This document shows positions 33,358-61,857 of a stretch of DNA of 64,000 nucleotides, in pieces; positions within the stretch are counted from its first letter, which is position 1; each line of letters opens with the position of its first letter. Under the pieces are notes generated by a model, which made no database searches, had not been told where the DNA came from, and saw nothing but the letters and a program-made list of their open reading frames with translations. The position numbers and the translations under genes are program-made. This stretch comes from Obrimoposthia wandeli (Eukaryota), in NCBI GenBank assembly GCA_977020255.1, contig CDROCS010005437.1:1-64000 (forward strand), written 5' to 3'.

Positions 33358-33603
33358 TAGACTAAAATTGTATTCTGTAAATTCTTTATATATGTCTGAA
33401 CCTGCTTTTTTATTGCACGTTTCTTGTAATTATCTTGCAAACCTATTATAATTGAATGATATATTTCTTCCAATCAAATTTGATTTTAAATATGGATTTA
33501 GCCCAATCAAATTCAATGCTTTAGTTATATTAACCAATGAGATTCATGTCTTTGTTAGAAATTAGTATAAAAGAATGCGCCATTGGAGGAAAAATCACAG
33601 TAA

Positions 33604-38873: not shown

Positions 38874-41460
38874 AAATAGCCGACGTCTGATGAAACTGTA
38901 TCAACAGTAGCCAAATCTGTCATCAACTTATTCAACTCTTCCTCATCATAAACCCACTTAAAGTTGGCATGAGGTAGAGGTTGAGTAAGCGCCCACCCAT
39001 ACAAATTATTAATATCGATGTACAGAATCTCCGTGGATTAATTTTTGACAACATGATGTTTGTTGACAAAAGTCATTCCACCGCGTATACCATAATCATA
39101 CATTTGATACATCGCGGGATCTTGCAGTAACTCGATATGAATTTTAAGAGTGTTTATTGCTGTTGCCCATGAAAGACCAGATAACTAAAGAAATGCATGG
39201 GATCTAGCCCATCTTCTGCTAAAGATTTTACATGAAAGGACTCAAAAACATCAGCGAAAAGATAAATGTCTAACTTCATATAATAAAGCATATATTCTAA
39301 AGGATTTTGACAATTATTCTCTCAAAATGTACGGGCCTTACACCCTCAAATTCAGTAATGGGTGGGATTTCTGTAATATTTTGTAAATCAGCAAAGGTTT
39401 TCGCAAATTTATACGGAAAAATCCCCTAATAATTAACCAAAGTTAGGAACACTGACTGTGTAATTGGCCATGCATTTAAAGATGCCGTAACATTTTTAAA
39501 AGACCCGCTCAAAAACTGCAAAGAATTTATGAATCTTAAGCTGCAGAATTCAGTATATGCAGTTAAAGATAAATATTTCTCTGAAGTTTGAGGTATACAT
39601 GAAATTTCCTTTGAGATTATGAAACTCGATGAGAATGCGTGGTTTTTTAGGGAGATGACGGCCAAGATTACAAAGGTTGCACGCCACTCCCAAGTATCGC
39701 CCCGTAACATGATCGTGATCTCTGACTAACTTAGACTGGGTTCCACACAAATAACATAATCTACAAGAATTAAAATTAACCCAGTCTATGCCTGTCATGA
39801 TCATTGCTTGATGAGCATTGAGATCCTACCACGGTTTGACAATTGTTGTTCCTAATTCCTCTAATTTTAACATAAAATCTAAAATACAATTTGGACCGGA
39901 AAATTTATAATACTGGGTAATATTGGGGCCTAAGAATAGTAGTCCTGCCGAAGCCGGTAGGTGAATACTCTCATACTAGTCATGCAATGCTAAAATTGAC
40001 TCAAAATCTGCATACACCCTGAATTCCACGGGTATGCATTTTGCCCAATCCCTGAATTTTGAATCCTTATCCTTAGGCATGCTGTATAGCGTATTGTCAC
40101 CAGGATTCAGTGAAAATAATGTCAGATGTTTGCTGTAAGAGAGCTCGGATCGGAATCCATGCAAACATCTATGACACCACTTACACCTTATCCTAACCCG
40201 TAAGGCTCCATTATCTAAATTTAGAAGACGATCTAAACTGGGAATTGCAGCATAATGGAATTTTTTATTATGTTCGAGCAAAATTAAGTTGACCCGAGTC
40301 CCCTCATTTTTTTCTCCTATAAATTACATCTACAAAAGGATTTTAAAAATTTTCTTCATCTGTTACATTAACTGGGATATCAGTATTATATTTGAATACA
40401 TTAATACTCAAGTTATTAAGATGTTCAAATCTTGATATCGCAGTTAATTTAACAGGAAAATCTATTCCATGATACTGCAATTCATTTAAAAAAGGGGTAT
40501 ATTTACTGACACGATCTCTATGCTCAGTAATCCCTTTTGAGGATGGCCAACACGCTATACAGAAACCAAAGGTTATAACTGTTTAGTATGTTAACAATGG
40601 AACGTGAAAGTTGAAGACATCTAGGTGAAGGAATGTATGAACTCCCCAAAAGATATATCATGTCAGTGAACTTTGTTAGAACAACGATAACATTGTGAAT
40701 TCTAACTAGAGTCTATCCACTACTTAACTCGCTATAATAAGCAATTTTTTATCTATGTTTCTTCCAATTTCAGTTACAAAATTATCATAGAAAACAGTTG
40801 CTTTATGTGAAATTACCAAGTTTTAGTCTCCTCATTGACATTTTCAAACTGCTCTGTTGCGCAAAATTGAACCTTAGCATGTCCTAATTTAGTCACTTCT
40901 GATTTTAAAGACTTTCAATATTTGAATCTACACCTACGTTTAAAAATATTTCAATTCCTAATGGCACCTTAACTATAACGTATTTATTATTTAGGTGATA
41001 CTCTATAGTAGCACCGTTTTCCTACGTTTTTTGGGTGGGACCTTATTAAGAAATTGGCCTTGCCTCTTTCTTCCTACAGTCGCTGACAAACCTCCCCCTA
41101 ATTGAACGGGAAGACAACTATTTATATTAACAGTTGAGGCAATCGCAGCTGATGTGGAAGGTGCTGCTATTGGTGATGCTGCCGATGTTGAGGCAATTGC
41201 TGTTGATGTAGACGATGCTGCTGTAGTATATGCTACCGCAGATGATGAGACAGTAGATGCTGCATTTGAAGTAGCAGACATTGCCGACGAAGAAGCGGCT
41301 GTTGTAGAGGATGATGCTGCTGAAATAAATATATTTTAAAAATAAATATATATTTTTAAATTATTACCTCTAAGACGTGCAAACATCTATGTAGTCACTC
41401 ACGATGGGGGAGGCATAGCTATCGTAGCGGACGACGGCTGTATCACGGTATTTCCTGAAT
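38874..41460 (-). pseudogene. polB: pPolB of copy A2 with spliced Ala/Ser/Thr-rich N-terminal exons
   Basis: Intron-like GT-AG segments at about 41322-41370 and above 41458; A/S/T-rich exon leading to PPKKRR then ENGATIEY...KVQFCAT; same Exo and endonuclease VII-like motifs as A1; motif A (LYIDINNLYGWA); truncated at 38874. Confidence 0.85.
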
Positions 41461-42865
41461 AAAAAATTAAAAAATAAATATATATAATTACAATTTTAAA
41501 AAATAATCAGAAAAATAATAGTAATTTTTAATTTGCACTGTTGCGCAAAATTGAACCTTAGCCTGTCCTAATTTAGTCACTTCTGATTTTAAAAGACTTT
41601 CCATATTTGTATCTACACCTACGTTTAATAAAATTTGATTTCCTAATGGCACCTTAACTATAACATATTTATTATTTAAGTGATACTCTATAGTAGCACC
41701 GTTTTCTCTACGTTTGTAGAGGCTGCATTTGAGGTAGGAGCCACTCAATATCCAGTAGCTGATGGCCATCTTATAAAAAATATTATAAATAAAATTGTTT
41801 ATATTTAGTTTGGTTATGTAAAATATTTAAAATATAACACTATAAAAAATCCATAAAATCAAAAGAAAAAATTTTTTTTTCGAATTTTTAAGAAGAACCC
41901 TCTTTAGGTTTAATCGGGAGGATTTTCTTTCTTGCGGCTCAGCGATTTTCTTCCGTCTCCACACTTATTTTTTTCCTATTCAACCTTTCTATTCCAGTCC
42001 AGTATCCGACGTCGTTCTGCTAGCCGCCTGTCCTGAATCTCCACCCGACGATTCCACTCGGTCGCGACAGCAGCATATAAATTTAGATTGAGGACCCTCT
42101 TTCTTAAATCTCCTTTCTTCACATTTCTTTTTATATTGTATTCTATCTTCGTCACGAGACTTTGCATTTTAGAAAATTCTATTTTTGAACCTATTTATAT
42201 AAATCTGAAATATTTTTAATCCAATCACAGTCAATTAAATGATATTTTTTTATTTATCAAATTAGAGTTTATAATTTAATAAATCTATAACTAATCATTA
42301 CATTTATATATAAATAAACTTATATTTTTGAAATTAAAGAAGTTTAAAGAATTATATTATTCCTAATTAATCCAACCAACATTGAATAAGTTTTTTTTTT
42401 CAAATGAGACTATTTTTTAATAAACTTAAGATTGTATTTTAATATAACTAAATTTCGTAAATATATCTAAATTTTTAAGTTATTTTTAAAAGTTAAACTA
42501 AAAACATAACACGTAAAATTATTTTTTATAAATTATATTGTTACATAGCACGTAAAATTATTTTTTATAAATTATATTGTTTCTAAAACACTACACAAAG
42601 TCATCGTTGGGATCATCCTCATCGATATCCCTCCGACTGAGTGGTATAGGAGTAAGCGGCACTGGCTCCTTATACTTCTTTGGTCGCCCTGGCTTTTTTT
42701 TGGCTGAACCCGTTGCTGTGCAGCAATTGGCCTTCTCTGAGGTTTTGGCAGTTAGTTGCCGCAACTTTTTCGGAGGAGGTGCAGCCGATGTTGATGGCCC
42801 GGACGAAGAAGTTGTAGCCTTCCTCTTCCGCAGAGCTTTCTTCAATTTATCCTCCTTCTCACGCT

Positions 42866-43001
42866 ACACAATGAGTACTCAGTTCGTACTTCCATTTTTT
42901 CAAATCGGATTTTCCCGATGTCCCAGACACTCCCGTTGTCGCACCAGGCACAGGAAAATCCGATTTGAAAAAAGGAATTACGAACTGAGTACTCATTGTG
43001 T
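42866..43001. repeat. left terminal hairpin of family B
   Basis: Arms 42866-42915 and about 42953-43001 are reverse complements (about 50 bp, few mismatches) around a ~37-nt loop. Confidence 0.93.
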
Positions 43002-43138
43002 CGTAAAATTACAAAATTGCCAAATTACAAAATTTGGCAATTTTTCCATATTATTTAAATTTTGTAAAGTTTCCAAAATTTAAAAAATATATAAAAATTA
43101 TTTTTTTTACTAAAAAAGATAAATTAAATTTTTTAAAA

Positions 43139-45900
43139 ATGGCGAATCCCAATAATCTATTAGAAGAATGGAAAGCTATAATTAATGTATTACATTCTAC
43201 AGAATACATTTTTCCCAATAATTTATTTGAAGATACCTATAATCCTGTAACGCAAATTGATGATATAAACGAAATAAAATATTTAAATTCTCATTATTAT
43301 AAAAATCAAAAAGGAATTGTTTTTCAATATAAAATTAAACCATTTGATAACACAGAAGAAAATATTAGAACTTGTTTAAATTTTATACTAGAAGCAATAA
43401 CAAATCACGATGACAATTTTCGTGTTAAATTAACACCTATTCATTCAATAATTGAATTAAAATATGCCGTATTTCCTTTGACAACAAAAGAAAATGTTAC
43501 AGACCTGCTATATAGCATTTTAGAAAAAATATTACAGTCCGCTGAAGAATTAAGCATAGAAGAAATAGTCTTTGAATTTTTACTTATGCCCATTCCTCAT
43601 GGAAGTGGACGAAATTATAGTGGCACAACTTCTAAAGATATATTATTGCGTAATTTTTCAAAAAATTCAAAATAATGACACACTTTGCTTAGCTCGTGCA
43701 ATAGTAACAGCTTTAACCTATGATAACATTACTAATAAAAATTATCATAATTATTCCAGTAATGATAATAGAATAAGATATATTAGAAGAGGAGAATTTA
43801 TTCAACAAGAGTTAGCTATTAGAATCCACAATTTAGCTAAAGTAGAAATAAAACAAGAAGGTAATAATTTAGACGATTTAAAATTATTTGAAGATTTTTT
43901 AAAAGTAAGAATTGTTCAATATTCTCATAACAATAATAATTCAATAATATACAGAGGCAATGAAGAATATGAAAAACAAACTTTTATTTATTTAAATGAA
44001 GAAGATAAACATTATTCGGCTATAGCCAAAATAGCAGCATTTCTTCAATCAAGAAAATATTGCCATGATTGCTTAACAGGATTTCAAAATCAACATACAT
44101 GTAAAATAACAGAAACCACTCTTTTTAGGCACAAATCAACATGTGAAGAATGTGGCCAAGAATATTTTAGCAGCTATAAACAATAGTGTAATTTTAAAAC
44201 ATGTACCATATGCTATGAACTTTATGAACTCCTTTTAAGGATCACAATTGTTATATGAAAAATAATAATGGAGAATTTAAAATTAGTACAAAATATTTAT
44301 TTTATGATTTTGAATCAACACAAGAAAATGCAGGTTATCATGAAATGAATTATGCTGTAGCATACGACGCAGAAAGAAAAATATTTTATAAATTACAAAA
44401 TAATAAAATATTTAGCTTTAGAGTTCTTTATGAAAATATTGATAGTCACACAGAAAAGTTAGAAAATTACAAAGATAAAATAGAGTTAAAAAATAAATAT
44501 GAAAATCAAATAAAAGCTCTAAATGTCAAAATAAATACAGGTAATTATGATCATGAAGCACAAAAAAATGCTCTTGAAAGTGAAAGATTGAAAATACAAA
44601 CTCTAATAAATAATAATTACTTACTTTCAGAGGATGAAAATAAAGAATATCTAACATTATCAGATATAAATTATGCTCCTAATAAATGGAATTTAGAAGA
44701 AATTAATGTTGATAATATAGGTAACAAAGTTTCTATAGTAGACCACAACGTATATGATTATGACACTGATGAGGAAGAATGTAACAAAAACACACCATTA
44801 ATAGAAACTTTTTGTGAGTTTTTCATTACAAAAAAAATTTATTGCGCATAATTCTAGAGGATATGACAATCAGCCAATTTTGGGTTGGTTAGTTCAAAAT
44901 AAGATTCCTACAGAGAAAATAAACAATGGTAATAAAATTATGCACATGCATGTTAAACATTTTAATATTACTTTTATTGACTCTTTAAATTTTACAATCT
45001 GCCCTTTAAAAGCATTTCCAAAAACTTTTGGCTTTAAAGGTAACAAAGGAGAATTTCCGTATTATTTTAAGAAGTTTGTAGAAAAGGAAATAAAACAATG
45101 GACGTATTGTACAAAAGAACACAAGATAAAAAGAATAACATTATTAACTATTTTAAAGATAAAATGGAAAATGTTAATTATATTGAAATGTGGGAATGTG
45201 AATATGAAAAAAATATTTCAATAAATCCTGAGTTTAAAAATTTAAAAATTGATTGTTCTTTAGAAAAATTAAAACCAAAAGATTCTTTTTACGGTGGCAG
45301 AACAGAACCCATAATGTTATACTGGAATAAAGATAATACACATCTTCAAGAAGAACAAGAATTTACCAAAGGCAATAAAGTTAGATATGTTGATTTTGTT
45401 TCTTTATACCCAACAGAAAATAAATATGACAAATATCCTACAAAACATCATATTAAAATCTTTAATGCTTCTGTGGAATTTTAGGTGAATTAACAGAAGA
45501 AATATCAGATGAATACGGACCAGATTCTTACATTACAGAATTTGTTGCACCTGCTCCAAAAGATTATCATATAAAATTATGGAGCTCAAAAGACCAAAAA
45601 ATTATTTCAAAAGGCAAAACAAAAGGTTTTGTTATTAAAAATATTGAAACAGATAAAATTACAATGGACAAGAAAATAAAAATGATAAAGAATAATTCCA
45701 ACAATCCTTTTAATCAAAATACTCAGGAAAATTATGAAACTATTGAGTGTTGCAAATTTAAATTAACAGGAGATAGTTATAAAATTTTCAATAGAATTCA
45801 AACATTGAGCGAAATAAAGATGTATGGCTTTGATTTTAATAAGAGACGAATAGAATACTTAGAAAATGGAAATGTAATAACTTTTCCATTTGGATATTAA
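43139..45900 (+). pseudogene. polB: protein-primed DNA polymerase B (family B), fragmented
   Basis: LCLARAIV, FYDFEST (Exo I), AHNSRGYD (Exo II), FIDSLNF, EMWECEY, FYGGRTE, YVDFVSLYP (motif A), LGELTEE...ITEFVAPAPKDY; motifs B and C absent. Confidence 0.92.
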
Positions 45901-46005
45901 AAGTTTAGATTTTATAATTTTATAAAATTTGAACATATTAGGAAAATATTTTTTCCTATTTTAAAATTATAACAGTTTTTTATAAATATAAAAAAATTGT
46001 TTTAT

Positions 46006-46809
46006 TCATTCTTTTGCTTCTAATTCTTTTACTCTCTTCATTAAAAAATCTATATTCTTTTCGAGTTCTGAATTTTTCATATTCTTATTCTTATTCTTAT
46101 TCTTATTCTTAGTATTTATAACTGTACCTTTAACACTATTATTCTCATATTCGATCTTTTTTCTCTTATGTTCTTGAGACATTGTTTCTTTATTTCTTTC
46201 CTTAATTTCACATATTTTATTTTTTACTTCTCTAAGAATTTCCTTTGACATTTCCATTTCATCGTTACTTATTTCATTATCTTTCAAACAATTCTGATGA
46301 AATAGAAATAATTTATTTTTACCTTCTTCAAGTGCATGAATTAATTTTTGATACTTCATCTTATTTCTTTTAAACAAACTAAAATTCATAATCTGCTGCA
46401 TCAAAGTACTACCTATAGGTGTTAATGCTAAAGTTATAGCTGGAAGAGCTACAATAGAAATTCCAGCGGTTACTAATCCACTGATAATTATACCTCCTAT
46501 TCCACAAATAGCTGTAAAACTATAATTTGTATATTTCACTATAGCATCAGCTTTGCACCATTTCTTATGTATTTTTTTATAATGTGAAATTTTATCAGTT
46601 AGAAAAATAAGATCATTTTTAAAATTTTCAATTTTCAATTTATTTACAGCTTTTTTATATTCTAAAGTTTCAATATCTGACAATGGCTTTATAGAAAAAG
46701 TATCATAATTATCATAATTATTCATATAAGCAACAGAACCAGAATTTTCATTCAAATTAGGATAAATATTTTGAATATTTTGAATTTCTGAATTTTCCAA
46801 ATCTTCCAT
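46006..46809 (-). CDS. coiled-coil protein with hydrophobic hairpin (putative membrane-active protein)
   Basis: Intact 267-aa ORF; segment FTAICGIGGIIISGLVTAGISIVALPAITLAL flanked by basic coiled coils. Confidence 0.55.
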   Translation of the reverse strand: MEDLENSEIQNIQNIYPNLNENSGSVAYMNNYDNYDTFSIKPLSDIETLEYKKAVNKLKIENFKNDLIFLTDKISHYKKIHKKWCKADAIVKYTNYSFTAICGIGGIIISGLVTAGISIVALPAITLALTPIGSTLMQQIMNFSLFKRNKMKYQKLIHALEEGKNKLFLFHQNCLKDNEISNDEMEMSKEILREVKNKICEIKERNKETMSQEHKRKKIEYENNSVKGTVINTKNKNKNKNKNMKNSELEKNIDFLMKRVKELEAKE

Positions 46810-46812
46810 TTT

Positions 46813-48276
46813 TTAGTAATAAATTTTATTTTTTATAATTTTTTGAGATACTACCTTATCTAAATCTTCGTTTAATTCTTCATTTAATTCTTCATTTATT
46901 TTTTTATAACTCATTTCATCATCATCTTCATCTGCATCGCCTTCATCGCCCGACTTAATTTCTCTTTTTACCTTTAAAGCATTTCTAAATTTAATTTCGC
47001 TAGACCAAATTGTTTGTCTTACAAACATACTATTAAATTGAGGATTTAAAACTTCAAAACAAAGACAATCTAAAATATTTCCTGATGCAAATTTTCCACC
47101 TAAAACCAATTTTCCAAATTTAAAATTTTTATCAACTTTAAAGCTATGCCATTTAGATAACTCTGTCTTAAATGATATTACATCACCTTTTTTAAAAAAT
47201 TGTATAAAGTTTAAATATTTCTTAAAACGCCTTTCTTTAAATAATTCTTTATATAATTCTTTATATAAATATAAATATGAGTCACATTCCTTATGATATC
47301 CTATTATTTTTGTTTGCTGTATATTTTCAGTAATTCCTTCAATACCCGAAATAAATACTCCATCGACTTCACCTTCATCTCTTTCAAATTCATCTCTTTC
47401 ACATAATATATAAAAATGAAAATCTCCATTAAATTCATAATTTGAAACAAATCGCGAATCATAGTCTAAATAAAAACATTTATTATTTCTAGTATCTTTT
47501 TTTATAACTGGAGATCCTATAACTTGCATTCCTTTTCCACTCAATTCTTGAAAAAATGATTCTGAATTTGTACCTCCAAATGGAAGCCTAGAAGATATCC
47601 AAAATTTTAAACTAATCAATTTTTCATTTTCTGCCTTCTTGAAAGAATTATGATAACTTAAAGTAAGTTCACTTATAGAATTAAAATACTCATTTTGGAA
47701 TGATCTTACAATAGATAAATATACTTTTTTATTTCTATCATTTTCTCTTTCTAATTCTGAAATCTTTTTATTTAAAATGGTAATTTTATCCTTATCAAGT
47801 TTTTCAATTTCTGTAGTTATAAATTTTTTAATATCTAAAATTTGTTCATTTGTATATTTTTTTTGTTCTGATAAATCTTTATCTGTATTATTTTTAATAG
47901 CTACATTTTTATCAATTATAAAATTTTCTATATATTTTTTATTAGCTGAATGTTGATCCTCTATATTAGTTTTAATTTCATTAATGTGTTTAGTTGTATA
48001 ATTTTCCATGTAAATTTTATTAACAGCATCTTTATCATTTTTAGGATCTTGTTCAATTTCTAATTTTTCAATTTTATCACCACTTTCATTTACATATTTA
48101 TTATCTAAATTTTTAATTTCGTCATTAAATCTTTTAATCTCCTCATTAACATTATTCACTTGCCTCTCTAAATGTCTAACTAATTTAATTTCTGTTTGAT
48201 TTAAAATATCTTCTAAATCTACATTTCCAGAATCTAAAGTTCCTCCTGCAAAATTCATAGGATAATAAGAACTCAT
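46813..48276 (-). CDS. fiber/spike-like structural protein candidate
   Basis: Intact 487-aa ORF next to the penton gene; N-terminal coiled coil, YVNESGD...DPKNDKDAVNKIYMEN fiber-type repeat, globular C-terminus. Confidence 0.45.
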   Translation of the reverse strand: MSSYYPMNFAGGTLDSGNVDLEDILNQTEIKLVRHLERQVNNVNEEIKRFNDEIKNLDNKYVNESGDKIEKLEIEQDPKNDKDAVNKIYMENYTTKHINEIKTNIEDQHSANKKYIENFIIDKNVAIKNNTDKDLSEQKKYTNEQILDIKKFITTEIEKLDKDKITILNKKISELERENDRNKKVYLSIVRSFQNEYFNSISELTLSYHNSFKKAENEKLISLKFWISSRLPFGGTNSESFFQELSGKGMQVIGSPVIKKDTRNNKCFYLDYDSRFVSNYEFNGDFHFYILCERDEFERDEGEVDGVFISGIEGITENIQQTKIIGYHKECDSYLYLYKELYKELFKERRFKKYLNFIQFFKKGDVISFKTELSKWHSFKVDKNFKFGKLVLGGKFASGNILDCLCFEVLNPQFNSMFVRQTIWSSEIKFRNALKVKREIKSGDEGDADEDDDEMSYKKINEELNEELNEDLDKVVSQKIIKNKIYY

Positions 48277-48285
48277 ATATAATTC

Positions 48286-49137
48286 TCAAACTTGTTTCAA
48301 ATGCAAATAAATACTGATTTTTTCACCATTAAAATGAATTAAATTATCATTTTCATCAACGATTTTAATTCTAATTTTATCAATCATCTTTCTTGATACT
48401 GGTAAATATATTGGAGTAGGTTGTCTTTCAATTAATTTATATCCAAAAGGAACAGTGTTTGTTGGAAAAGAATATAAAATATTTGAAGACAAACCATTTT
48501 GATAACTTCCTTCAATAATGTCACAAATAATATTTATAGTAGAAATATTTGAAATTTGAATTATTTCTTGAGAGATATGAGTTCCTGTTTTGTACGAAAC
48601 TTTGTTGCTAAGACCTTCGGTCTGTCTTCCTGTACCATATTTAAATCCAAGAATTGTATGAAAAAAACATTCTTTTGTAAATATAATTTCACATTTGTTT
48701 AATGTTAAAATACATTTTGAATTTATTGTATTTGGCTTAATTTCTATTACAGGTAAAGTTTTTATAATTTTATTTACTGTAGAAGGCACAGAAGGCACAG
48801 AAGGTGAGGACTGAACACCACCCATTTTTTCTTGAAGTTTAGTATTCAATGTTTTAATTTCATATGAACCCGGCTCTATTTTAATTATTTCAGATTTGGT
48901 TTCTGTAGATCCTGGTAAATTTTTATTCATTATAAATGTATTATTTTTATCATTAATATTAAAAATTGTATTATAACATGAAAACCACAGCATACCAAGT
49001 TCATAATTTAAATCTGAATTTAAGACAATTGGATGAGGAAAATTAATACTAAATTCACTATCATTTGATTGAGCTGTAATAGTTGTAGATTGTTTATTCG
49101 AAAAAATATTTTCTAGTTTTCTTAAACTGTTTTCCAT
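48286..49137 (-). CDS. minor capsid protein (penton-like)
   Basis: Intact 283 aa; YELGMLWF, IEPGSYEI, TINIICDIIEGSY...ILYSF...FGYK...IYLPV...IRIKIVDEN. Confidence 0.85.
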   Translation of the reverse strand: MENSLRKLENIFSNKQSTTITAQSNDSEFSINFPHPIVLNSDLNYELGMLWFSCYNTIFNINDKNNTFIMNKNLPGSTETKSEIIKIEPGSYEIKTLNTKLQEKMGGVQSSPSVPSVPSTVNKIIKTLPVIEIKPNTINSKCILTLNKCEIIFTKECFFHTILGFKYGTGRQTEGLSNKVSYKTGTHISQEIIQISNISTINIICDIIEGSYQNGLSSNILYSFPTNTVPFGYKLIERQPTPIYLPVSRKMIDKIRIKIVDENDNLIHFNGEKISIYLHLKQV

Positions 49138-49191
49138 AACTTTCGTTTTTTAAAAAATCTTGGATTTTTAAAATTTTTAAATGTAAAATTT

Positions 49192-49668
49192 TCATAAAAG
49201 CAAAGGACTTAGGTCCTTATAAATTTCTTGAATTATATTTTCTATACTAGAATTTTCCACATTCGAGAGTCTATATATAACATACAAGCATAAAATGCCA
49301 CAAATTTTAGTTCCATTAGGTTGTACTTGTAAAGTATTAAAAACATAATCAGGTGATAAAAATGCTTCTACTTCTTTTGTGGGTCCAATTCCATAAGAAT
49401 CAAAATAAATATTTCTATCTATCATACATACCCAATGACTTCCTTTTTTATCTGAATTTTGAATATTTATAATGACATTGTGTTTTTTAGTATTTTGAAT
49501 CTTTTCAAGTTCATCATCCATCAGTATTTTAATATTTAAGCTCTTATAGCCAAGAAGCTTTGCTTCGTCAAGATAATTTGCATAATCTTTTAAATCAAAA
49601 TTTGTTTTAGTATTTATACCAAATGTTTTTAAAAAGTCAAGAACTGTGTATATCAAAATTGAACTCAT
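49192..49668 (-). CDS. adenain-like cysteine maturation protease
   Basis: GSHWV (His), YFDSYG (Asp), LQVQ (Gln), ICGILC (Cys) in correct order; intact ORF. Confidence 0.9.
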   Translation of the reverse strand: MSSILIYTVLDFLKTFGINTKTNFDLKDYANYLDEAKLLGYKSLNIKILMDDELEKIQNTKKHNVIINIQNSDKKGSHWVCMIDRNIYFDSYGIGPTKEVEAFLSPDYVFNTLQVQPNGTKICGILCLYVIYRLSNVENSSIENIIQEIYKDLSPLLL

Positions 49669-50470
49669 TTTTTAATATACTTTTTAAATTTTTCATTTGA
49701 AATTATTTTTCCGTTAAGCAATTTTAGAGAAAGATTTTTAATATCTTTATCAACATTATTATGTCCTGCTTTTTTAGCTGACAATAATTTTCTTAGTTCA
49801 ATGAAAGTATTTATTGGATTTGAAGATTTATGTATTAGAGCCTTTGGTTCTAAATAACCATCTCCCTCATCTCCTACTTCTTCAACTATAGCACCTTGTT
49901 GATTTTCATATGATCTGTTTAAAGTAGTCTGTAATTGTTTAGTATATTTTCCAACATGACTTTTTGATATTTCTAAAATTTTAAAATATTTATTAATTTC
50001 ATCTTTATTTGTAGAACCATGTCCTTTTAACAGATCATCCAAATCATTCGTATATTCATATTTATCAGTTGTATCTCTGGCTCCAATATAATTTTTATTA
50101 TCAACTGTAAAAAGTATGAAATGCTTTATAGTTCTTTAGTATAAAATTTTGGTACTGCTGAACTAGGCAGTGTTCTAGCTTTAATATCTGTATCTGTTAA
50201 TATGAAAGGTTCACTTTTTGAAGAATCAAAACCTTCTATTGCTGGTTGTTTTGGGCGTTTCACACCATCTTCTATTTCAAGTTGTTTCTTATTTTCAATA
50301 GCAATTTTAGAAGGTAATTGATCTACAGCTTTTACAACAGGAGATTGTAATTTTAAAATTTGTTCATTTACAATAATAGTTCCCATCTTTACCGCAATTT
50401 CATTCTCTTTATATTTATCTTCTAATTGAACTATTTTTTTCAATGCTGCTAATCGATCCTCAAAAACCAT
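49665..50470 (-). pseudogene. conserved-type Polinton protein split into two ORFs
   Basis: ORFs 50126-50470 and 49665-50042; C-terminal LRKLLSAKKAGHNN...KLLNGKII motif of a kind seen in Polinton core-region genes. Confidence 0.45.
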
Positions 50471-50485
50471 TTTTTAAGATAAAAA

Positions 50486-51312
50486 TTAATTATCTTTATA
50501 AGGCTTTAAATATATCCCCAATCCATGTTTACCTTCTTTTACTTTACATATACATCCTTTCTTTAAACTTTTACATGTTTGTTTCATTTGTGATTTTTTT
50601 TCAGTTGATAAATTTTCATCTTGATCTATAAGATTTTTCATAAAATCATTCACTCCTCTACCTTGATGGGGGTTAAGATATAGGCCCTTACCTACTGACT
50701 TTACTAATGGTACAGTTTTTACACCTTTTTCTTTTAACTGTCTCAACTCTTCAGTTAATATTTCAGCTTTTAATTTTTAATTTTTAATTACTTCATTATC
50801 TCGTCCAATAGCTCTAGCACCTTGAACAGCACTAAATATTCCTGTAGCTATTGGAGCCAAACTTCCTACTGCATTTCCAACTTCTCCAATTTTACTTAAG
50901 AAAGGTGATAATGAATCAAATGAAATAAATCCTCCATTTTTTGAAGCTTTTTCTTTCAACTGTCTGAATTCTTCTTGTAGCTTTTTAGTTTCAAGTGTAG
51001 TTTTGGCAGCTTCTAAATTTATCTTTTTTTCTCTGCATCATTTTTTGCACCTTCTTTTGCCTTTTGAACAGCTGTTGCAACTCCACCTGCTACACCACCT
51101 GCTGCTCCAAGTGCTGCAGCTATTACAAGCATTAAAGCTAAAAGAGGAAAAAATCTACCTTCTTTCGTTTCAAGTTGTTGAGCTTCATGTTCTTTTACAT
51201 GTTTCTTAATATTTTTTCCAATCCAATACTTTTTATCATTAATTGTAACAGATTTTGTTTTATTAGAGTCCACAAGATCTCTTAATTTTTCCTCAGTTAC
51301 ATTTGTGGCCAT
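50486..51312 (-). pseudogene. cluster of small basic core-like ORFs with GG-F/GxG motifs
   Basis: EGRFFPLLALMLVIAAALGAAGGVAGGVATAV; KNGGFISF; GKGLYLNP and GLGIYLKPY. Probably one or two genes broken by frameshifts. Confidence 0.55.
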
Positions 51313-51351
51313 TATATTTTTTATTATTTTTAAATTTTAAAAATATAAAAA

Positions 51352-52139
51352 ATGGCAGTTTTACCAATATGGAATCAGGACAAAAGTATTTTTAAAAATG
51401 AAATATTTCCATCGAATTTTAGACTTCTAATTATAGGATCTTCTGGTTGTGGTAAAAATGTATTGCTTTTAAAAATGTTACTTACACCAGATTTTATAGA
51501 TTATGATAATCTTATTTTCTATTCAACAACCTTAAATCAAAAAGAACTACAAATTGTAAAAGAAGGTTTTGAAAATGGTTTAACTAAAAAGGCCATACTT
51601 AATATATTTGAAAATCAAGATAAATTTCCAAGTGAGGTAACGGCAGCAAGTGATATTGTAGAATATTATAAGAAAAACATTATAAAATCTAAAATGGAAA
51701 ATAAAGATAAATGTGAATATGTGTCAGAAGATTCTAGAATCAATATGATATTTTCCAACAAACCCGAGGATATTTTACATTGTGATAAACTTCCTAAAAG
51801 TAAAAAAATCTTATTATTTTTGATGATGTTGTAAATCTTAAAAATCAAGAAATTCAAAAATCTTATTTTACACGAGGAAGACATAATAATTGTAATGTTA
51901 TTTATATTTCTCAAAATTATTATGGCTTAGATAAAAATTCTATAAGAAATAATTCTAACTGTTTTATATTTTTTAAGCTTAATAAGAGAGATAGGGACAT
52001 GGTTTACAATGATCTTTTTTCAAATGTTGAGCCGGATAAATTTATGTTTGATCAATTTTCTATAAATCATTGGAAAGATAAGTATACTTATATTTATTTA
52101 GATAGAGAAAAGGAAGAAATGATAGAAGAATTGTTTTAA
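51352..52139 (+). pseudogene. A32/FtsK-like packaging ATPase (family B), frameshifted at Walker B
   Basis: LLIIGSSGCGKN, then ILLF/FDDVV across a frameshift, TRGRHNNCNVIYISQNY, IRNNSN. Confidence 0.9.
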
Positions 52140-52292
52140 GTGTAAAATTAGCGCAAAGCACCCGATTATTTTTTTAATTGTTTAAAATAATCTATTTTTG
52201 GAGCTTTATAAATGATTACGTATTATTGGGATGGGCTGATCGTTTATTTCATATTTATAATTTTTTTATTTTTTTAAATTAAAAATTAAAAA

Positions 52293-52871
52293 ATGGGTGA
52301 TTTGAATTATTTTAAAGATTTAAAAGTTCTTGAGGATTTTGATGTTAGTCTAATACACAAGCATAGAAAACTAACATTGATGAAAGATTTCAATTTAGCT
52401 CTAATAGAAAATCCAAATTTAAGTAAAGCTCAAATAGCTAAGAAAATTGGTACCTCTAATAATATAATTGATAGAACTAGGCAAGATTTAAAAATTTAAA
52501 GTTTTTATGGTTATGATGTCTCTCTTAAAAAGTCGAAAAAAGTTCATAAAGTAGTCGATCAAATAACATGTGAATTTTGTAGTAAAATTTGTGTGAATGA
52601 TTTGGGCCATAAAACTCATTTAAGAAGTTGTAAAACATTTAAAAATAAAACTGCAAATGAAAAGCAACAATATATGAGTAAACAGGCCAATGTTGGAAAT
52701 GTGAAAAATGCAGTAAATACAATAAATAATTATAGAGGTGGGCAGAATAAAAGTTTAAGAAAATCTATGATTTTAAAAAATGTTGAGGATGCTGCTGATA
52801 GAATTGATAGTGATGATAGTGCTAATAGTGATGGTTCTAGCAATGAGACTATTAAAAATGCTTTTTCTTAA
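52293..52871 (+). pseudogene. HTH plus zinc-finger-like DNA-binding protein
   Basis: NPNLSKAQIAKKIGTSNNIIDR (HTH-like), in-frame stop, then CEFCSKICVNDLGHKTHLRSC. Confidence 0.55.
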
Positions 52872-52886
52872 ATTTAATTTTTAAAA

Positions 52887-53255
52887 ATGAATGAAATTAG
52901 TAAAGCGCCAGCTGAATATGATGCTTTAAGTACGGCGGAACAAGAAGAATGCGGGAAAAAAAATTTAATTCAAAATGAAATCTTATCTACAGCTGTTCTA
53001 AAGATGCGTGATGAGATTAGAAAATTAGATAAGGAATTAGAATTGAAAAATAATAGAATTAATGATCTGTTAGATGAATTGGCTAAGAGTAATGAGAGTA
53101 ATGAGAGTAATGAGAGTAATGAGAGTAATGAGAGTAATGAGAGTAATGAGAGTAATGAGAGTAATGAGAGTAATGAGAGTAATGAGAGTAATGAGAGTAA
53201 TGAGAGTAATGAGAGTAATGAGAGTAATGAGAGTAATGAGGTGTGGGTAATGTAA
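52887..53255 (+). CDS. coiled-coil protein with (NES)16 repeat
   Basis: 122-aa ORF; AATGAGAGT perfectly repeated at 53091-53240. Confidence 0.55.
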   Translation: MNEISKAPAEYDALSTAEQEECGKKNLIQNEILSTAVLKMRDEIRKLDKELELKNNRINDLLDELAKSNESNESNESNESNESNESNESNESNESNESNESNESNESNESNESNESNEVWVM

Positions 53256-53537
53256 TGAGGTAATGAGGTAATGAGGTAATGAGGTAATGAGGAGTAAAGG
53301 TGAGGGTAATGTAGTGGAGGTAATGAGGTAATGAGGGTAATGGAGTAGGGGAGTAATGGGAGTAATGGGAGTAATGAGAGTAATGAGAGTAATGAGAGTA
53401 ATGAGAGTAATGGGAGTAATGAGAGTAATGAGAGTAATGAGAGTAATGAGAGTGGTGGGGAGTAATGTAAGGGAGTAAATGAGGAGTGTAATGAGGTAAT
53501 GAGGTAATGTAATGAGAGTAATGAGAGTAATGAGAGT
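53091..53537. repeat. 9-bp AATGAGAGT microsatellite, perfect then degenerate
   Basis: About 16.7 perfect units followed by GTAATGAG/GGGAGTAAT variants. Confidence 0.95.
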
Positions 53538-53571
53538 TAATATTGTTTCTTCTTAAATTTAAATTTTAAAA

Positions 53572-53940
53572 ATGCCTGGAGATTTTATTGAATTGGTTAA
53601 AAAAGAAGTAAATGAATCATTGGTTGAATATGATGCTTCAAATCAAGCAACAAAAGGAGTGGTTGGTAGAAAGTTTTTAGTTCAAAATAAAGTTTTATCT
53701 AAAGCTATTCTAATTATGGGTGATACAATTGGAGAAATGGATGAGGAAATGGAATAGAAAGATAACAAAATTAGTTATTTGGAAAATGAAATTGGCGTAT
53801 CAGATGAGGAAGTTGTTAATAAAATGATGAAATTAAAGCGATACAATTTAAGTGATGTTAATAGAAATGAAAGAACTTTCAATCGACTTTGTAAAAATAT
53901 AATTAAACATGACCAAATTGAAAATTAAGAAATGAATGAT
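53572..53940 (+). pseudogene. tandem paralog of the 52887 ORF
   Basis: EYDAS...GRKFLVQNKVLSKAILIM vs EYDAL...GKKNLIQNEILSTAVLKM; same TTAAATTTAA(A/T)TTTTAAAAATG upstream context; premature stop. Confidence 0.6.
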
Positions 53941-55252
53941 TTATGAATATATTTTATAAGAATGCGTAAAATGATAATTAATAAAGTTTTTTTTTTGCAC
54001 AATTGAGTTCGCATTCTCTTGATTATTCTTTCATTTATTTCTCTAACTAAATTAGGATTTTCACTTGCTTCTTTTGGAGTAACTTTAATTGAACTATGTT
54101 TTGTATTATTGTAATCAGTAACAATTTTTTGCAATAAATCATTATTCCATTTTGAGTTTCCTACTGCAGTAAAATATTTCCACATTTTATCTTTTAAAGT
54201 TTTTATAAATCTTTCAGCAAAAATTGCTTTTCCTTCATTTTCTGTATGGTACAATTTTATATCATTTTCTTGTAAAAATTCATTGAAATATTTGGAACGA
54301 ATTCCAGACTCTTTATCAAACCAAATATAATTAGGAACTCGAGTAGATTCCTCAAATATATTTTCAAATGCTTCTCTTAAACTTTCTTGTTTTTTATCTG
54401 TCATGGGAATAGCCCAACCATATCTAGTGTATAAGTCTATAACGACTAAGATATATCGTTGTCCCTCAGCGGACTTATTAGGCTTATTGCAATGTCTGAA
54501 GACCATGTATGATCTTTGTCATAAACTTGAACTTTTAGATATTTTTTAGGTTTTTGATATTGATGATGTAATTCATTTGATAGTTGAATTTGTTCACTTG
54601 TTGGTTCTTTTATTTTTACAGTTTCAGAAATTTCTTTTGCTTCGGGATTTTCATATAAATTTTTAATTGCTTCAGTTTTAGCAGTTCTTGGAAGGCTACT
54701 GGCTCCAATCACACCTGCTCCTAAGGCTATCTTTCCTTTCATAATTAATTTTATTAATGCTCTTTCTACTTTTTCTCTAGTTGTTGGATTATTAATTTCA
54801 TTTAGGTCATGCATTAAATTTACATCTGCTACTTGTCTATCTCTTATATTTTCATTTCTATAAGCAATGTCATGTTTTAAAGCAGATGCATCAACTCTAT
54901 TTATGGGCTCTTCTCCTGGTTTAGGTTTGTCATTTTCATCAAGTCTAATATCAAGTCTTGTTCCTGGACCTGTATAACTATGACTTGGTAAATGTTTTTC
55001 ACCCTCATATTTTTCCCAGGGGAATTTAGGAAGAAATTTAGCAGTTAAATGTTGAAGATCGCCACCAGAAAATTCATGAGTAGTAGATTTTTTAAAATTC
55101 TTGGCTAGTAGATTTTTCTTAGTTTTTAAGTGATTAAAGTTAAATAAATGTTTTTTACTATTATTGTGCTCAGATCTATGATGTGCAACTGTGTCACAGT
55201 GACAAATGTCACATCGCCAATATCTACTGTTGTTTTTAAAAATATAGGACAT
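53925..55252 (-). pseudogene. int: zinc finger - parvovirus-type PLA2 - RVE integrase ORF (one frameshift)
   Basis: CDICH...H...H; YTGPGT...DASALKHDIAY (PLA2); open frame into LSNELH...WSSDI; frameshift at about 54490, then RYILVVIDLYTRYGWA, WFDKES, AERFIKTLK. Confidence 0.88.
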
Positions 55253-55309
55253 TGTAAATTTATAATTTTACTTGCTTTTTTATAAATAAAAATATTGATT
55301 TTATTTTTA

Positions 55310-56610
55310 TGCAGTATCTCCTCTAACGTTCTCAAGTAGACTAATTTTACCTCCATTCAATTTCATTTCAATTTTCTTTTCTTCTAGAACTAAACAATAT
55401 ACTTAGCTTAAAGCTTTTCCGAATCTTTTGTAACATGTAAAGTTACATCAACATTATTAATAGCCAAACGATCATCATTATCTGAGACATCTATGCAAAA
55501 TATTGAATACAAATTTCTAAAATCTATCAAACTTAGTTGTGGTTGAGTTTTAAAAGCCTTACAAGTATTTACATATTCTTGATAAGGAAATAGATTTTCA
55601 TTTTCTTTAATATTAAATTCCATTCTATTGATAGGATAGTAAACATTATTCAATTGAACTTGGATTGATTTAATACAGTTTGTTGTAACAGCGCCAGTAG
55701 TAGTAGTATTTGCAGTCGACTGTATAAAAAGTGAATTGTTTTTCACTTCAGAAATTTATGTGTCTTTAAATCCAACTAGAACAAATCTAGGCTTATAAGC
55801 CAAATTTGCTAGCTTTACTGAAAATGTTGAGCCTGTTCCCATGCTAAGCATTGTACAAATTCTATTTAAATAATCAACATGTATAGGTTTATTTGTGTTT
55901 AGTCTTTCAAGAAGTTTTATTTCAGCTCTAGGATTTAGAGTCCATTCAGGAATATGGAGTTCAATTGTAGAAAGTTTGAGTTTAGCATCGGTTGCGGCTG
56001 CTCCAAAATAAATTAGTTTATCGTCAACAGATCTATTACAAATAAATTCTATAAAAACATTATGAATTATTCTATTATAATTTTGAAGAAAACCAAAAAG
56101 ATGTTTAAGCTCAAAAACTCCCTCAAATTTATTTTTATTATAGAGATCTTTTCTAAGCGCATAACTTTTATTTGTGTTAGTTGTATCACCTTTCTTTGTA
56201 TCTGTCATTTCTCCATATTCATTTTTATAATCATTATCTGTAAGAATGAAGTTTAGCATGGAGGAATAAATTCCTGGATTGAGTACATTTTCTACTTCTG
56301 TTGATCCAATTTTAAGTCTCATATTTGAAAAAAGACTAGGAAAGAAATTATTTTCAAGAGTAATATTATCAGTATCTTCAATGCCCTCTAACTCAATTTT
56401 ATAATAAAGTTCAGCATTACAAATATCTAGAGGATTTGAAGTTTGAAGAGATTGAAATACAATATCGCCGGATTTATTAAGATTTGAAATTGATCCAGAT
56501 GTTGGACAAATTTTGAGAGTATCATTTTTCTTTATATCATGAGAAAAATGTTTATTGTGATAAAGATTTATCTTAGATTTATCTGTAATGTCTATATTCG
56601 CACTTTCCAT
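55310..56610 (-). pseudogene. double jelly-roll major capsid protein (hexon-like), frameshifted
   Basis: NLNKSGDIVF, LENNFFPSLFSNMRLKIGSTEVENVLNPG, GFLQNY; continues in 55408-55746 (YPINR...YSIFCIDVS). Confidence 0.88.
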
Positions 56611-57133
56611 TTTTAAAAAATAAAAATAAGAATTTTTAATATTTTCATTATATAAAATATCAGTTAATATTCTATTGCAACTTATAGTATTTTGTGTAGC
56701 TAAATAATTGGTATTGGCTTGTGGATCACCTAAAGAGGCAGATGTAATTGCTGTTTTTTTTAATATCTACATTTTTTTAAAAAGTGATTTTGTAAATGAA
56801 AAATTGTAAAATCTGCGGCAACTATAGCTTTACTTTTGTTACTAGTCTCTAGAATAGATTTTGTAAATGAAAAAATGGTAAAGCGCCGCTTTACTTTTGA
56901 TACTAAAAATTGACTAATTCAAAATATTAAGTCAAAATATATATTATTAAAAGTTTAATTCATTACAAGCTTCAGATATAAGTTTGAAGTTTCTTTGTAC
57001 AAAATGCAAAGATAAAGAAGTTGTTAAAAGGCGTGGATGATTAACACATAAATCATGCAATTTTATCAAAAGACCAATATATTGTTTTGTATAAATAAAA
57101 CCATTTGCCTTTAAAATTTTTATATAATTTTTT

Positions 57134-58007
57134 TTATCTAAATTTTTTATATTGAAAAAAATATTTCCTAATATAGAATAAAAATAAAGACTTTTTATTT
57201 AAAGTTTTAATTAATATATTTAATCTTTTAATTGAATATAAACATGATTTAATGTTATCACATTTAAAATTACCTGTATCGTCTTGAAAATGTTCTTCTA
57301 TTACAGAATTTTGAATAGTTGCAATCATATCTTTCACAGTTTTCTGCTGTTTCTGTATTCTTTCAACTGGCTCAATTGTAGTAATAAAAACGCCATCATC
57401 GTCATTGTTTGCGTTTATGCCTTCCATTTCTTGTGATAATCTGGTGCTTGGCGACTGCAAAAAATCCTCGGTTTTCTCGAGTAAACATTGGAACTCCGCA
57501 CGTTCTTTATCGCAGATGGTTTCTGAGAGAACAAGTATTTCTTTCATTTTTCTAATAAATTCCATTGTGAAAGATAATTAAGTGTGATCGATATTAAATA
57601 ATTCGTAGTTGATATGTGAGTGTCAATATATGCAAATGAACTGATGTTTTATTAACATTGAATATTGAATGTCAACTATTAAAAATAAACTATCATTAAA
57701 AAGCACATCAGTATATTATTGATTTTTTCATTTGTGCTGGCATGAGTAAATAATTCTAGTATAAAATTTAAACAAGTTCTAATATTTTCTTCTGTGTTAT
57801 CAAATGGTTTAATTTTATATTTAAAAACACTTCCTTTTTGATTTTTATAATAATGAGAATTTAAATATTTTATTTCGTTTATATCATCAATTTGCGTTAC
57901 AGGATTATAGGTATCTTCAAATAAATTATTGGGAAAATGTATTCTGTAGATGGCAATACATTAATTATAGCTTTCCATTCTTCTAATAGATTATTGGGAT
58001 TCGCCAT
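57134..58007 (-). pseudogene. right-end gene sharing its first ~85 codons with pPolB via the TIR
   Basis: ATG at 58007 gives MANPNNLLEEWKAIINV; 1-nt deletion; homology ends at 57754; the 143-aa ORF 57134-57565 lies downstream. Confidence 0.45.
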
Positions 58008-58203
58008 TTTTAAAAAATTAATTTATCTTTTTTAGTAAAAAAAATAATTTTTATATATTTTTTAAATTTTGGAAAATTTACAAAATTTAAAAAATATGGA
58101 AAAATTGCCAAATTTTAAAATCGCGACTGTGAGGGGAACAAAAATCAAAACAAAAATCGCAGATATATATTCTCTTCTCAACTTCCCAATATAGTCGTGT
58201 GCA

Positions 58204-58250
58204 AAAATTGGCCTACCTCAGGCGCTTCGCGCCTGAGATAGGCCAATTTT
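58204..58250. other. 22-bp-stem hairpin with GCGAAGC triloop on the minus strand
   Basis: AAAATTGGCCTA-C-CTCAGGCGC-TTC-GCGCCTGAG-A-TAGGCCAATTTT, one mismatch. Confidence 0.9.
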
Positions 58251-58352
58251 AGTGAAAATATATTTTTTCAGTCCGACGCGTTGTTCGTACCTCTGTATAT
58301 AATAGTGTTAAGTATCGCTACATAATAAATAAATCAATTTTTTAATTTTACG

Positions 58353-58511
58353 ACACAGTGAGTACTCAGTTCGTAATTCCTTTTTTCAAATCGGATTTTC
58401 CTGTTCCTGGTGCGACAACGGGAGTGCCGGGCACGACCAGTGGGAGCGTCTAGGAAATCGGGAAAATCCGATTTTGAAAAAATGGAAGTACGAACTGAGT
58501 ACTCATTGTGT
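58353..58511. repeat. right terminal hairpin of family B
   Basis: Arms 58353-58401 and about 58461-58511 are complementary; the loop carries about 22 nt more than the left end. Confidence 0.93.
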
Positions 58512-61500
58512 CACGCTGAAGCTGGCGTGAGACAGCATCTTGCTGCCCTCGCGAATCCAGTATCCGCCAGGAATTCGTCTAATCCAGCTTCATCCAAGGC
58601 CCTCTTCAAGTTCTGGCTGGTGTTTGGACGAGGATAAGCCAAATTTTGGCTGATGCTTAATGGAGCCAGTGCAGTTTCCTGCAGGCGTCGTTGACTGGGA
58701 GGCAGACTAATCTCGATCGGAGAGACTGGTATCCTCTCGTACAAAATTGGCCCGTTGTCCACTGGAGATTGGAGAATATCCTGCCGACCAATCACCGCCT
58801 CAGAAGAATTGAGCATTGTGGTGCGACATTTTCTCGAGCACTTTGTCTTCCGCACCTCTGCTTGCTTCGTCCGTCTCTGCAGGAAAGGAAAGATTTCTCT
58901 CCATGTCTCCTCCAATATCTGGACTGGTTCCTGTAAAAAACTTCAATAAAATTTAAACATATAAATTATTTACCTCAATGACCGGCAGGTTAGCCTGTTT
59001 TACCAACTTGGCCTTCTTCCTGTGGACCGTCTGGGTTTTGACCCGATGACGTCGCGGTTTCCTAACCGCCGTTTGCTTCCTATCCACCGGTTGAATAGGC
59101 GTCGCTTCTTCGAGAAAAATCTCCATCTATGTGAATTATTAAATTTAATATCTAATTTAAAATAATTTACCGTGATATTATCTGGATACGCTAGGTATCG
59201 GAACTCACTCCATGGCAGCTCCTGGCTGCATTGAGTTGCCAAGTATTGTGATTCTTTCAGCCTCTCGACCGTGGTCACTGACAGTGTTATATGCAGTTGA
59301 AGTTTCTGAAAATGAAATTAAAAAAACATTTGAAATAAATTAAGTCTAATCATTCGTTGTCTTTATTCTCCGAACTGCTCGCATCGAAGATTGCAGCCTT
59401 CTGAATGGTTCAGTCGCCGTATTGTCTGTTGTCGGAGTTAGAGGAAGCCTCGTTGTCGTTCAATTCTGTCACTATTGACTCGTTTGTGGCTGGGGCTCCG
59501 ATACTTGGCTGGATCCATTCGTCTCAAATGGAGTCAAATCCTCATCTTGATCCGACGGTACCCCATCACTGAATAGCTCCTCAACAGAGTCCGGTGCGAG
59601 GACTATCTCCGGCTGAGTCAGCGGGAACAATTTCTAGGGGCGTTTGGTTGCCGCCTTGAAATTGTCAAAAAGATTGGATCTCCTTGCTGCTACTGCCAAA
59701 GTTGCTGGACGAGCAGTTTCTGTATTCTACCGGGGAGTACAGTCTTCCCAATTCTCAATTGAATCCTGACTTGTCAGGTCGATATACTGGGATCTCTCAC
59801 CCATTGGTTCTTCTGTCAGAGTTGTGCTAGCCAATGATGCTTATTCTTCCAACAGCTCCGCTCTTGCTGCTGCTTCTTCGCTAAGTAAATCAATGTACTG
59901 CGACGGTGGTGATTTTCTCTGCTGTACTGGAGACAGATTCCCATACAGTTGAACTTCCATCTCTTCATCTAAGTCGACATTATTGTAGAAAGGCATTCTG
60001 TTGATTTTATATACACAAACATCAGACTAACCCTCCTTTATCATCCAATGAGAGCGTCTTATTTAAATAATTTATTTGAAAATCCATAAGCTTTTCTCAA
60101 GTTTTTACTACGTTTGAATGCGAGAATGTCATTGGATAAAAAATTATTAGAAAATTTTACTTCGAAAATTTTGTTGGCTGAGTTCAATGAGAGTGAATTA
60201 TTAAAATAATTTATAGTTTTTGTCTAAGTATGTCCCAATAATTTATTTAAAAGATGAGTTAAAAATAGACTATATGAATTCGTAATTTATAGTGATATGA
60301 CACCATATATACATGTGTAGTTGTAATAGGGAGAGGGGGTATGAGTAGATGAATAAAGTAAATGAAAAATACTGTAGCGCCCGGAGGGCTCGAATTGTGG
60401 TTGCCCCGAGGAGCATATTGTGGCAGAGGGAGAGGCCCCAAAGGGGGAGGGTGCGGCAGAGGCCGTTTGTTGCTTTTTTAAAAATTATTTTCAAAATTTC
60501 AATCCACACACATACACAAAATTTTACTCCTCACACATGCACGATTTTAAAGGACAGAAGTAGACCCCTCAAGGGGGAAGGGGATGGGGTGGATTAGACC
60601 AGACACATCCACCTACTTCAGGCCTATAGTTTAAACTACACAGACCATACAAAGGGCCGTACAAATAGATACAGACAACCTCAACAAACTTGAAAGTGAT
60701 CAATGAAGAAATCAGGAACAAATAACCAATGATTCTACTTGCGAACCAATGTAAACTGGTACCAAACATTGATAACGCATCACGATATGAACTGAGAACA
60801 CAGAAATTGAACCCAAATACTAATACAATTAAACTTACACGATTGGTAAGCGATAAAAATTACATAAATGTGAAGACCGACAGAAATAATTCGAAACCAA
60901 TGAGAATTGGTATACTCAGGATGAAGCACCAAGAAGAAAGAGAAGTCATCAGACACATTGCACAACAAAATATATTACAAGAAGACGAAGAGATCGTCGT
61001 CATGTTTGAAAGAACACAACCAACTGATGTGGCAAAATAAGTTATTTTGAAAGACGCATTAACAAAAGAATTCTTGTGTGAACTTAAAGTGTCATATTTT
61101 GATGGAAACACATTAGTAGCGGAACTTCATAAAAATTAAAATGTGTTTACGACTGAGAAAGTAATCGTAGAAATCTCATTAACACCAAACATAATTGTAT
61201 GGCAGAACTATGATAGTACTGAAGTAGGACTAGTCAGTCAGTAGGAGAAAGAACTGACTGGTGGTCATATACTTCATGGAACACCAAAAACTCAGACAAA
61301 AATATTATGATGTAATACTGGTATTGCATAACACAGGAAAAAAAAAAAGAAGTTTTGTACAATAAATTGACTTGTAAACATAATATATTTTTGCATATTT
61401 TCAGTTTAATATGTTGTAAGTTATTCGAACTTGTGTACTTGTACAAAATTTGTAAATATTTCAATAATTAAAAGCGATATAAATGTTAATCATCAAATAA

Positions 61501-61857
61501 TAAATAAATAAAAAGTAGATAAAATAATTAATTCCATATATAATCCCTTTAAATTTAAAAATCTCATAATGTTCCCAAAATTCTGATTAAGGTCCTGAGA
61601 GGCCGTCAAATTGGCCAAAGCGTGCCCTCCGGGCCCGCGGTGGATCAACGAGCAATACATACATACAGGCTCGCGAAAAAAAAATTCCTTATAAGAATTT
61701 ATATCCATACATATATACAAGGTCGTAAAAAAAAATTTCTTTATAAGAATTTATAAGAAAGATACATATATAGGGTTGCAAAAAATTTTAAATAATCAAC
61801 TACATAAATTCGAAATAATTTTCATTTTTATTTGGTGAGTCATCAAATTAGTCATCA

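Follow-up and report, generated by a model that had tools for sequence, protein, structure and literature searches.

A Polinton nested in a decayed copy of a second Polinton family: an ordinary nest, probably made by chance, whose inserted element has hairpin ends

Does one virus-like element lie inside another by accident, or because it seeks the other out? The question is raised by a 64-kb window of the Obrimoposthia wandeli genome (assembly GCA_977020255.1, contig CDROCS010005437.1, positions 1 to 64,000, forward strand), in which a Polinton of one family, here called B, interrupts a copy of a second Polinton family, A. The original prediction for this locus left the choice between chance in an insertion-tolerant region and targeting of one element by the other. 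Positions are those of the window, the whole stretch analysed; B is the inserted element, and A1, A2 and A3 are the family-A copies. The nest is real, is best read as an ordinary case of one Polinton inside another, and is made up of the following parts, among them terminal inverted repeats (TIRs), target-site duplications (TSDs) and open reading frames (ORFs).

42866..58511, no strand: Polinton B, 15,646 bp, 26% GC, decayed, with TIRs, TSD and genes
42860..42865, plus strand: left TSD copy, CACGCT (6 bp)
58512..58517, plus strand: right TSD copy, CACGCT (6 bp)
27293..27309, plus strand: uninterrupted (empty) site in A1, a 17-mer with the hexamer at 27298-27303
25047..34366, plus strand: A1, a 9.3-kb internally deleted copy with both TIRs and the TSD CGAGTT
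38874..42865, minus strand: A2 left of B, with the end of the regulator gene, a small ORF and a broken pPolB; truncated at 38874
58512..60617, minus strand: A2 right of B, with regulator exons and the AGTAG terminus (60617)
61521..64000, plus strand: A3, a third family-A fragment; the window stops before the site

B has inverted termini, starting ACACAATGAG and ending CTCATTGTGT, and CACGCT directly abuts both externally, as predicted. Given that this hexamer is sparse in the 64 kb (4 occurrences on the plus strand and 7 on the minus), the exact pair at the two ends of B is not a product of chance. The uninterrupted site that had been placed in A1 at about 27291-27307 is indeed present, at 27293-27309. 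Counting the TSD on both sides, the left flank of B agrees with it exactly over 16 bases and the right flank over 13, for a total of 23 bases with no gain or loss. Longer flanks agree at 221 of 262 aligned bases on the left and 177 of 206 on the right (84-86%), and A1 is a paralogous copy, not the A2 allele. The insertion falls within the last exon of the A2 gene (an exon that begins at about 26850 in A1), as had been claimed; exon 1 of the same gene was already broken. The differences drawn between the two families, in termini (AGTAG in A, ACACA in B), in pPolB type and in introns, were likewise borne out.

B probably entered A2 by chance, as a Polinton that integrated into a decayed copy of a very abundant family with no A-specific targeting. 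Of the two possibilities originally raised, it is the insertion-tolerant region that gains from the evidence: A is tens of times commoner than B, many A copies have the site uninterrupted, and of the two elements A2 is the more decayed. Targeting is unsupported, though a weak preference for A may exist. Abundance was judged from the contigs of four runs aligned to positions 54000-61000, which span the right junction. Median summed contig depth, which is not a copy number and which the overlap of short contigs inflates more for the high-copy family A, was 52, 74, 144 and 118 times higher over A than over B in the four runs. Set against the conserved genes of B the excess was 33-84 times, and even the lowest A bin was 7-11 times as deep as the highest B bin. 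Just inside B, the bin reached 0.7-4.5% of the depth in the A bin adjoining the site. In run X1, locus-unique contigs had a depth near 50, against about 313,000 for A and 560-9,400 for B. The direction of the difference is clear. At 58511, in run X3, 18 contigs leave the reference and continue in A-like sequence, which is the empty site, and no B end with a different flank occurred among the loose ends listed for 54000-61000.

The decay of the two elements points the same way. In-frame stops number 7 in 664 aligned codons of A2 and 2 in 1,872 of B, the latter counted over those genes with an available relative (p 0.002, or 0.016 without two doubtful A2 stops), and the premature-stop density of the A2 polymerase is about ten times that of B. 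A1 has 4 stops in 627 codons (p 0.04 against B). Further, the A2 pPolB has six frame changes, and exon 1 of its regulator gene has three stops and one frameshift that lie about 1 kb or more from B. Because A2 is more decayed than B, B probably struck a dead copy, and insertion into a relic is the most likely history. The proposal to date both elements by TIR divergence could be carried through for B (13/518) and A1 (2/98), whose intervals overlap; A2, with one end, is not datable in this way.

In mechanistic terms, the rve integrase of B, a Polinton/Maverick, would have made a 6-bp staggered cut, displayed by the TSD, in an already decayed A copy. Family A would present a large target, and insertion into a dead relic would cost the host nothing and so be retained; if so, no A-specific targeting is needed. 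B would then have decayed in situ, or may have arrived already defective, mobilised by the enzymes of an intact relative, and both histories fit alike. A related rve-integrase virophage family is described as lacking sequence-specific integration in PMC8547959, and in one protist genome virus-like elements are frequently nested (10.64898/2026.07.28.741278). With assumed inputs, the probability of at least one nest is 0.60 for 30 B copies and A at 3% of the genome, 0.10 for 10 copies and 1%, and 0.10-0.96 across 10-30 copies and 1-10%.

Several points weigh against chance as the explanation, beginning with the inflation of summed depth and the restricted stop count given above. All four runs come from a single sample, possibly the window's own, and a single insertion event underlies the entire argument. 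Family A occupies 17,898 of the 48,354 non-B bases of the window (37%), which speaks for a large target, but the figure is biased by the choice of window. Finally, given the overlapping TIR divergences, the periods of activity of A and B may have overlapped.

The strongest rival, clearly less likely than plain chance yet still to be reckoned with, is an indirect preference in which silenced, repeat-dense chromatin is where the B integrase prefers to insert, or the one place where insertions survive, so that B would land in A above the genome average with A not recognised as such. Three A copies and hAT-like remnants lie inside 40 kb, and the viral elements of the protist Halocafeteria seosinensis often sit in repeats (10.64898/2026.07.28.741278). 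The C-terminus of the B integrase is absent, so that a chromatin-reading domain (for example, one providing chromodomain guidance) is not assessable.

True targeting is distinctly improbable. On this reading B, as a parasite or competitor, would seek out family-A genomes, by a tethering protein or at replication sites shared in co-infection, and disable their regulator gene. In its favour, an A gene is indeed split by the insertion, and the periods of activity may have overlapped. A precedent exists in another class of element, in that endogenous virophages hold 91% of type 1 Ngaro retrotransposons (PMC8547959). The Ngaro elements of EMALE virophages resemble B as mobile elements within a virus-like element, and theirs is a published case of real preference, but Ngaro is a retrotransposon whose preference was seen over many insertions, whereas a single insertion is at hand here (PMC8547959). 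Against targeting, moreover, by far the larger part of the A sequence aligned has the site empty, many lesions of A2 are unrelated to B, A and B have no DNA homology, and B has capsid, integrase and polymerase genes of its own and thus no evident need of A. Were targeting true, one virus-like element would be parasitising another within a host genome; the evidence leans against it. Barely credible is an assembly artefact joining two unrelated repeats, as might be feared at a repeat-dense locus where neither junction is bridged among the contigs listed for the four runs, since a chimeric join is not expected to leave 6 bp exactly duplicated on either side of B, nor a 23-base match to a paralogous empty site with no gain or loss, and these features, rather than read support, make misassembly very unlikely.

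The import of the nest itself is low: what it gives is the relative timing of two families at one locus. The ends of B matter more, given that with a pPolB element whose ends are self-priming, a second route of replication becomes testable from sequence alone, by looking for flip/flop between copies.

42866..43393, plus strand: left TIR of B, without about 220 bp and 22 bp found in the right TIR; contains the pPolB start
57754..58511, minus strand: right TIR of B, 13 mismatches to the left TIR in 518 aligned bases
42866..43001, no strand: left terminal palindrome of B, 136 nt, with a stem of about 50 bp and two mismatched pairs; z -14.7
58353..58511, no strand: right terminal palindrome of B, 159 nt, with two mismatched pairs as in the left and a longer loop; z -12.3

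At each end, none of 200 shuffled controls was as good as the palindrome observed. Predicted folding gives -52 to -56 kcal/mol for the B ends and a weak -13 to -17 for the ends of family A, the shuffle control applying to B. A 17-base end motif occurs in 4 copies, two per end, where 0.11 are expected. The same two mismatched pairs distinguish outer from inner arm at both ends of B. Since both ends share the palindrome together with these mismatches, the structure was already present in the mobile form, and the stem would for the same reason be heritable and no accident of the present insertion. Both hairpin ends (n=2) are in the same orientation state, flip/flop having been scored on these two ends only. 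A window-wide hairpin scan that required a seed of 12 exact bases recovered the left hairpin only and is not a count of hairpins. Further short palindromes in the TIR of B lie at 58200-58255 (right TIR only) and at 43029-43110.

In single-stranded form, a B end folds so that its 3' terminal base is paired and the genome beyond it serves as template, which is a self-priming geometry; from the sequence, we infer that the hairpins may be put to this use. Parvoviruses and poxviruses have terminal hairpins in which a palindrome carries a few mismatched pairs and the 3' end can prime synthesis by folding back. The end geometry of B is like theirs, but B has a pPolB and an integrase, and no Rep-type nuclease was identified in it. 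It is possible, if on balance doubtful, that the B family represents pPolB-encoding, capsid-bearing Polintons, probably of an animal host, whose fold-back ends let a displaced strand prime its own copying, parvovirus-like, instead of or besides protein priming, with the opened palindrome offering the ACACA end to the integrase and the stem inherited. An equally simple account is a one-time snap-back accident, copied onto both ends and tolerated afterwards. Its hairpin ends set B apart as a modest, modestly unusual variant within a nest that is itself best read as ordinary. Because Polintons carry pPolB, their replication has been modelled as protein-primed (10.64898/2026.07.28.741278).

The closest published parallel is in H. 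seosinensis, which has 14 nested viral elements (5 polinton-like viruses, or PLVs, and 9 virophages) and palindromes inside TIRs beside the TSD, for which a hairpin-priming model and an accidental origin were both offered; these palindromes go preferentially with non-pPolB replicases and measure 52 nt in one subtype (10.64898/2026.07.28.741278). B is thus like these elements in its nesting and in its TSD-adjacent palindromes, with the same two explanations, but theirs are protist virophages and PLVs with mostly non-pPolB palindromes, whereas B encodes pPolB and has palindromes of 136 and 159 nt. In the literature searched, from which subscription papers and Repbase were excluded, no report of terminal palindromes in an animal pPolB Polinton was found, and this preprint was the sole source found for nested viral elements or terminal palindromes. 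In their available parts, PMC11296320, 10.1101/2024.01.15.575659, PMC11131425, PMC12220804 and 10.1101/2025.02.07.637071 held retrotransposon cargo or nothing relevant. Among viral contigs, the terminal 23-mer of B had 0 matches and no relatives of its capsid were confirmed; none of 9 metagenome capsid loci had a terminus or the pPolB-side end of a B-like element.

The gene content of B is that of a decayed Polinton.

43139..45900, plus strand: pPolB remnant; PF03175 E 3e-10, above cut-off; found by tblastn with relatives; Atlas 0.96
46006..48285, minus strand: two open ORFs, 268 and 490 aa between stops; nothing in Pfam reaches cut-off
48286..49149, minus strand: open gene, probably for a minor capsid (penton) protein; 36% to an ORF of metagenome contig L002; no Pfam match
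49192..49671, minus strand: probable adenain-type protease gene, open; 45% to an L002 ORF; no Pfam or PDB match
51019..51336, minus strand: piece of a pX-like core protein; PF05829 E 3e-4, below cut-off
51349..52139, plus strand: packaging ATPase with one frameshift; PF04665 E 0.002, below cut-off
53925..54518, minus strand: rve integrase, frameshift near the start, C-terminal part absent; PF00665 E 4e-9
54446..55267, minus strand: parvovirus-type PLA2 domain protein, open; PF08398 E 9e-8
55316..56610, minus strand: double jelly-roll major capsid gene with one stop and one frameshift; PF21738 E 1e-16; 28 relatives

Above the Pfam cut-off are pPolB, the rve integrase, the PLA2 domain and the double jelly-roll capsid. 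The penton label follows from gene position and the protease label from motif order, and both are putative. B has the features of a Polinton/Maverick, namely a pPolB (as a remnant), a retrovirus-like integrase, TIRs with a 6-bp TSD and a double jelly-roll capsid. Its pPolB is frameshifted, contains one stop and, in a tblastn comparison with relatives, lacks about 200-260 and 265-290 residues at two internal places; the last polymerase (catalytic) motif is gone as well. With stretches of its polymerase and the C-terminal part of its integrase missing, and with its capsid gene broken by a stop and a frameshift, B in its present form is dead. The polymerase retains the tail of a putatively VSR-like domain, the front part of which occurs in several relatives. 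A tandem repeat of a nine-base unit in B (53086-53560) enters an ORF as a repeated tripeptide.

B is like the animal Polintons or Mavericks (adintoviruses) in its pPolB, rve integrase, TIRs, 6-bp TSD and capsid gene and in its probable packaging gene; copies of those elements are likewise mostly decayed and fall into two polymerase classes (PMC8502044, PMC8097293). For vertebrate Mavericks, the end motifs listed are (AG)3 and (AGT)2 and the genes lack introns (PMC8097293), whereas here B starts with ACACA and A has introns. The 5'-(AG)3/(AGT)2 motif is not in B, which begins ACACAATG; B is consequently not to be filed with vertebrate-type Mavericks, and its Polinton membership is unaffected. 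Its polymerase we assign provisionally, on motifs, to the Beta class, so that B pairs a PLA2 gene with the polymerase type other than the one expected. PLA2 genes are typical of Alpha virion modules (PMC8502044). The Alpha and Beta PolB class names are those of PMC8502044. Beta-PolB adintoviruses are recognised by a PolB that clusters with a Terrapene reference and by gasdermin or cupiennin accessory genes. No gasdermin match was found in the Pfam scan of B.

Between A and B, blastn found no match, and protein identity of 31-44% is confined to short stretches of integrase and polymerase. Relatives of the A-type and B-type polymerases align with one another locally alone, at 22-37%. The genes of family A comprise a pPolB with an endonuclease VII domain, an integrase, an ATPase and a TBP-like gene. 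Both PF03175 and PF02945 (HNH, endonuclease VII) lie above cut-off in the A polymerase and both are found in its relatives, as is characteristic of the Alpha-PolB/pPolB2 type. In nematodes, pPolB1 and pPolB2 Polintons similarly show two very distant polymerase types per genome, an HNH domain in one of them (as with PF02945 in A) and polymerase swapping between capsid modules, but those classes share TIRs and other genes while A and B are unrelated at the DNA level (10.1101/2023.08.22.554363). Nesting is not mentioned in the available part of that source. Metagenome contig L002 (1-9190) joins a B-like capsid, penton and protease to an A-type polymerase of 1,414 aa (E 2e-83), a mixture of modules in line with the swapping described in PMC8502044 and 10.1101/2023.08.22.554363.

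Within family A, a pattern scan placed 3 GT-AG introns of the regulator gene at matching places in each of A1 and A3, and one clean match with one mis-placed donor in A2; a fourth intron of A1, at about 26353-26396, was read by eye. Short spliceosomal introns, together with 3 named mollusc proteins in a set of 56 distant relatives, point to a host that is probably an animal. The protein, for which 'regulator' is the label of the original prediction, matched nothing in Pfam or Atlas. No terminus was found at the truncated end of A2 (38874). The TBP-like gene of A1 (32716-33500, minus strand) has one intron and adjoins the ATPase; it matches PF00352 at E 5e-10, and its top PDB matches are archaeal TBP. 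A figure legend in PMC8502044 also names TBP-like genes in related viruses. The A1 polymerase lacks its two ends (cut at about 28423-28470 and at 30263), and a Pfam scan found no match to a major capsid in A1. The pPolB genes of A1 (28470-30055) and A2 (38874-40394) have a premature stop at the same codon and are 5.4% apart, against 17% for the regulator genes. The shared stop and unequal divergence suggest a mosaic, non-autonomous lineage moved in trans.

Elsewhere in the window, hAT-like transposase remnants (35886-38100; weak PF05699) lie between A1 and A2, and a self-inverted element of 237 bp resembling a miniature inverted-repeat transposable element (24317-24553) lies just left of A1. 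A GC-rich satellite of 3.4 kb with a unit of about 28 bp occupies 10843-14219. Pieces of a Cys-rich ORF labelled RING-like by eye (715-2109, 2297-5250 and 22692-23600) and dispersed short repeats common to 2.3, 4.3 and 22.7 kb possibly represent another mobile family. A Cys-rich fragment labelled EGF-like by eye (14962-15461, minus strand) is possibly a host exon or pseudogene.

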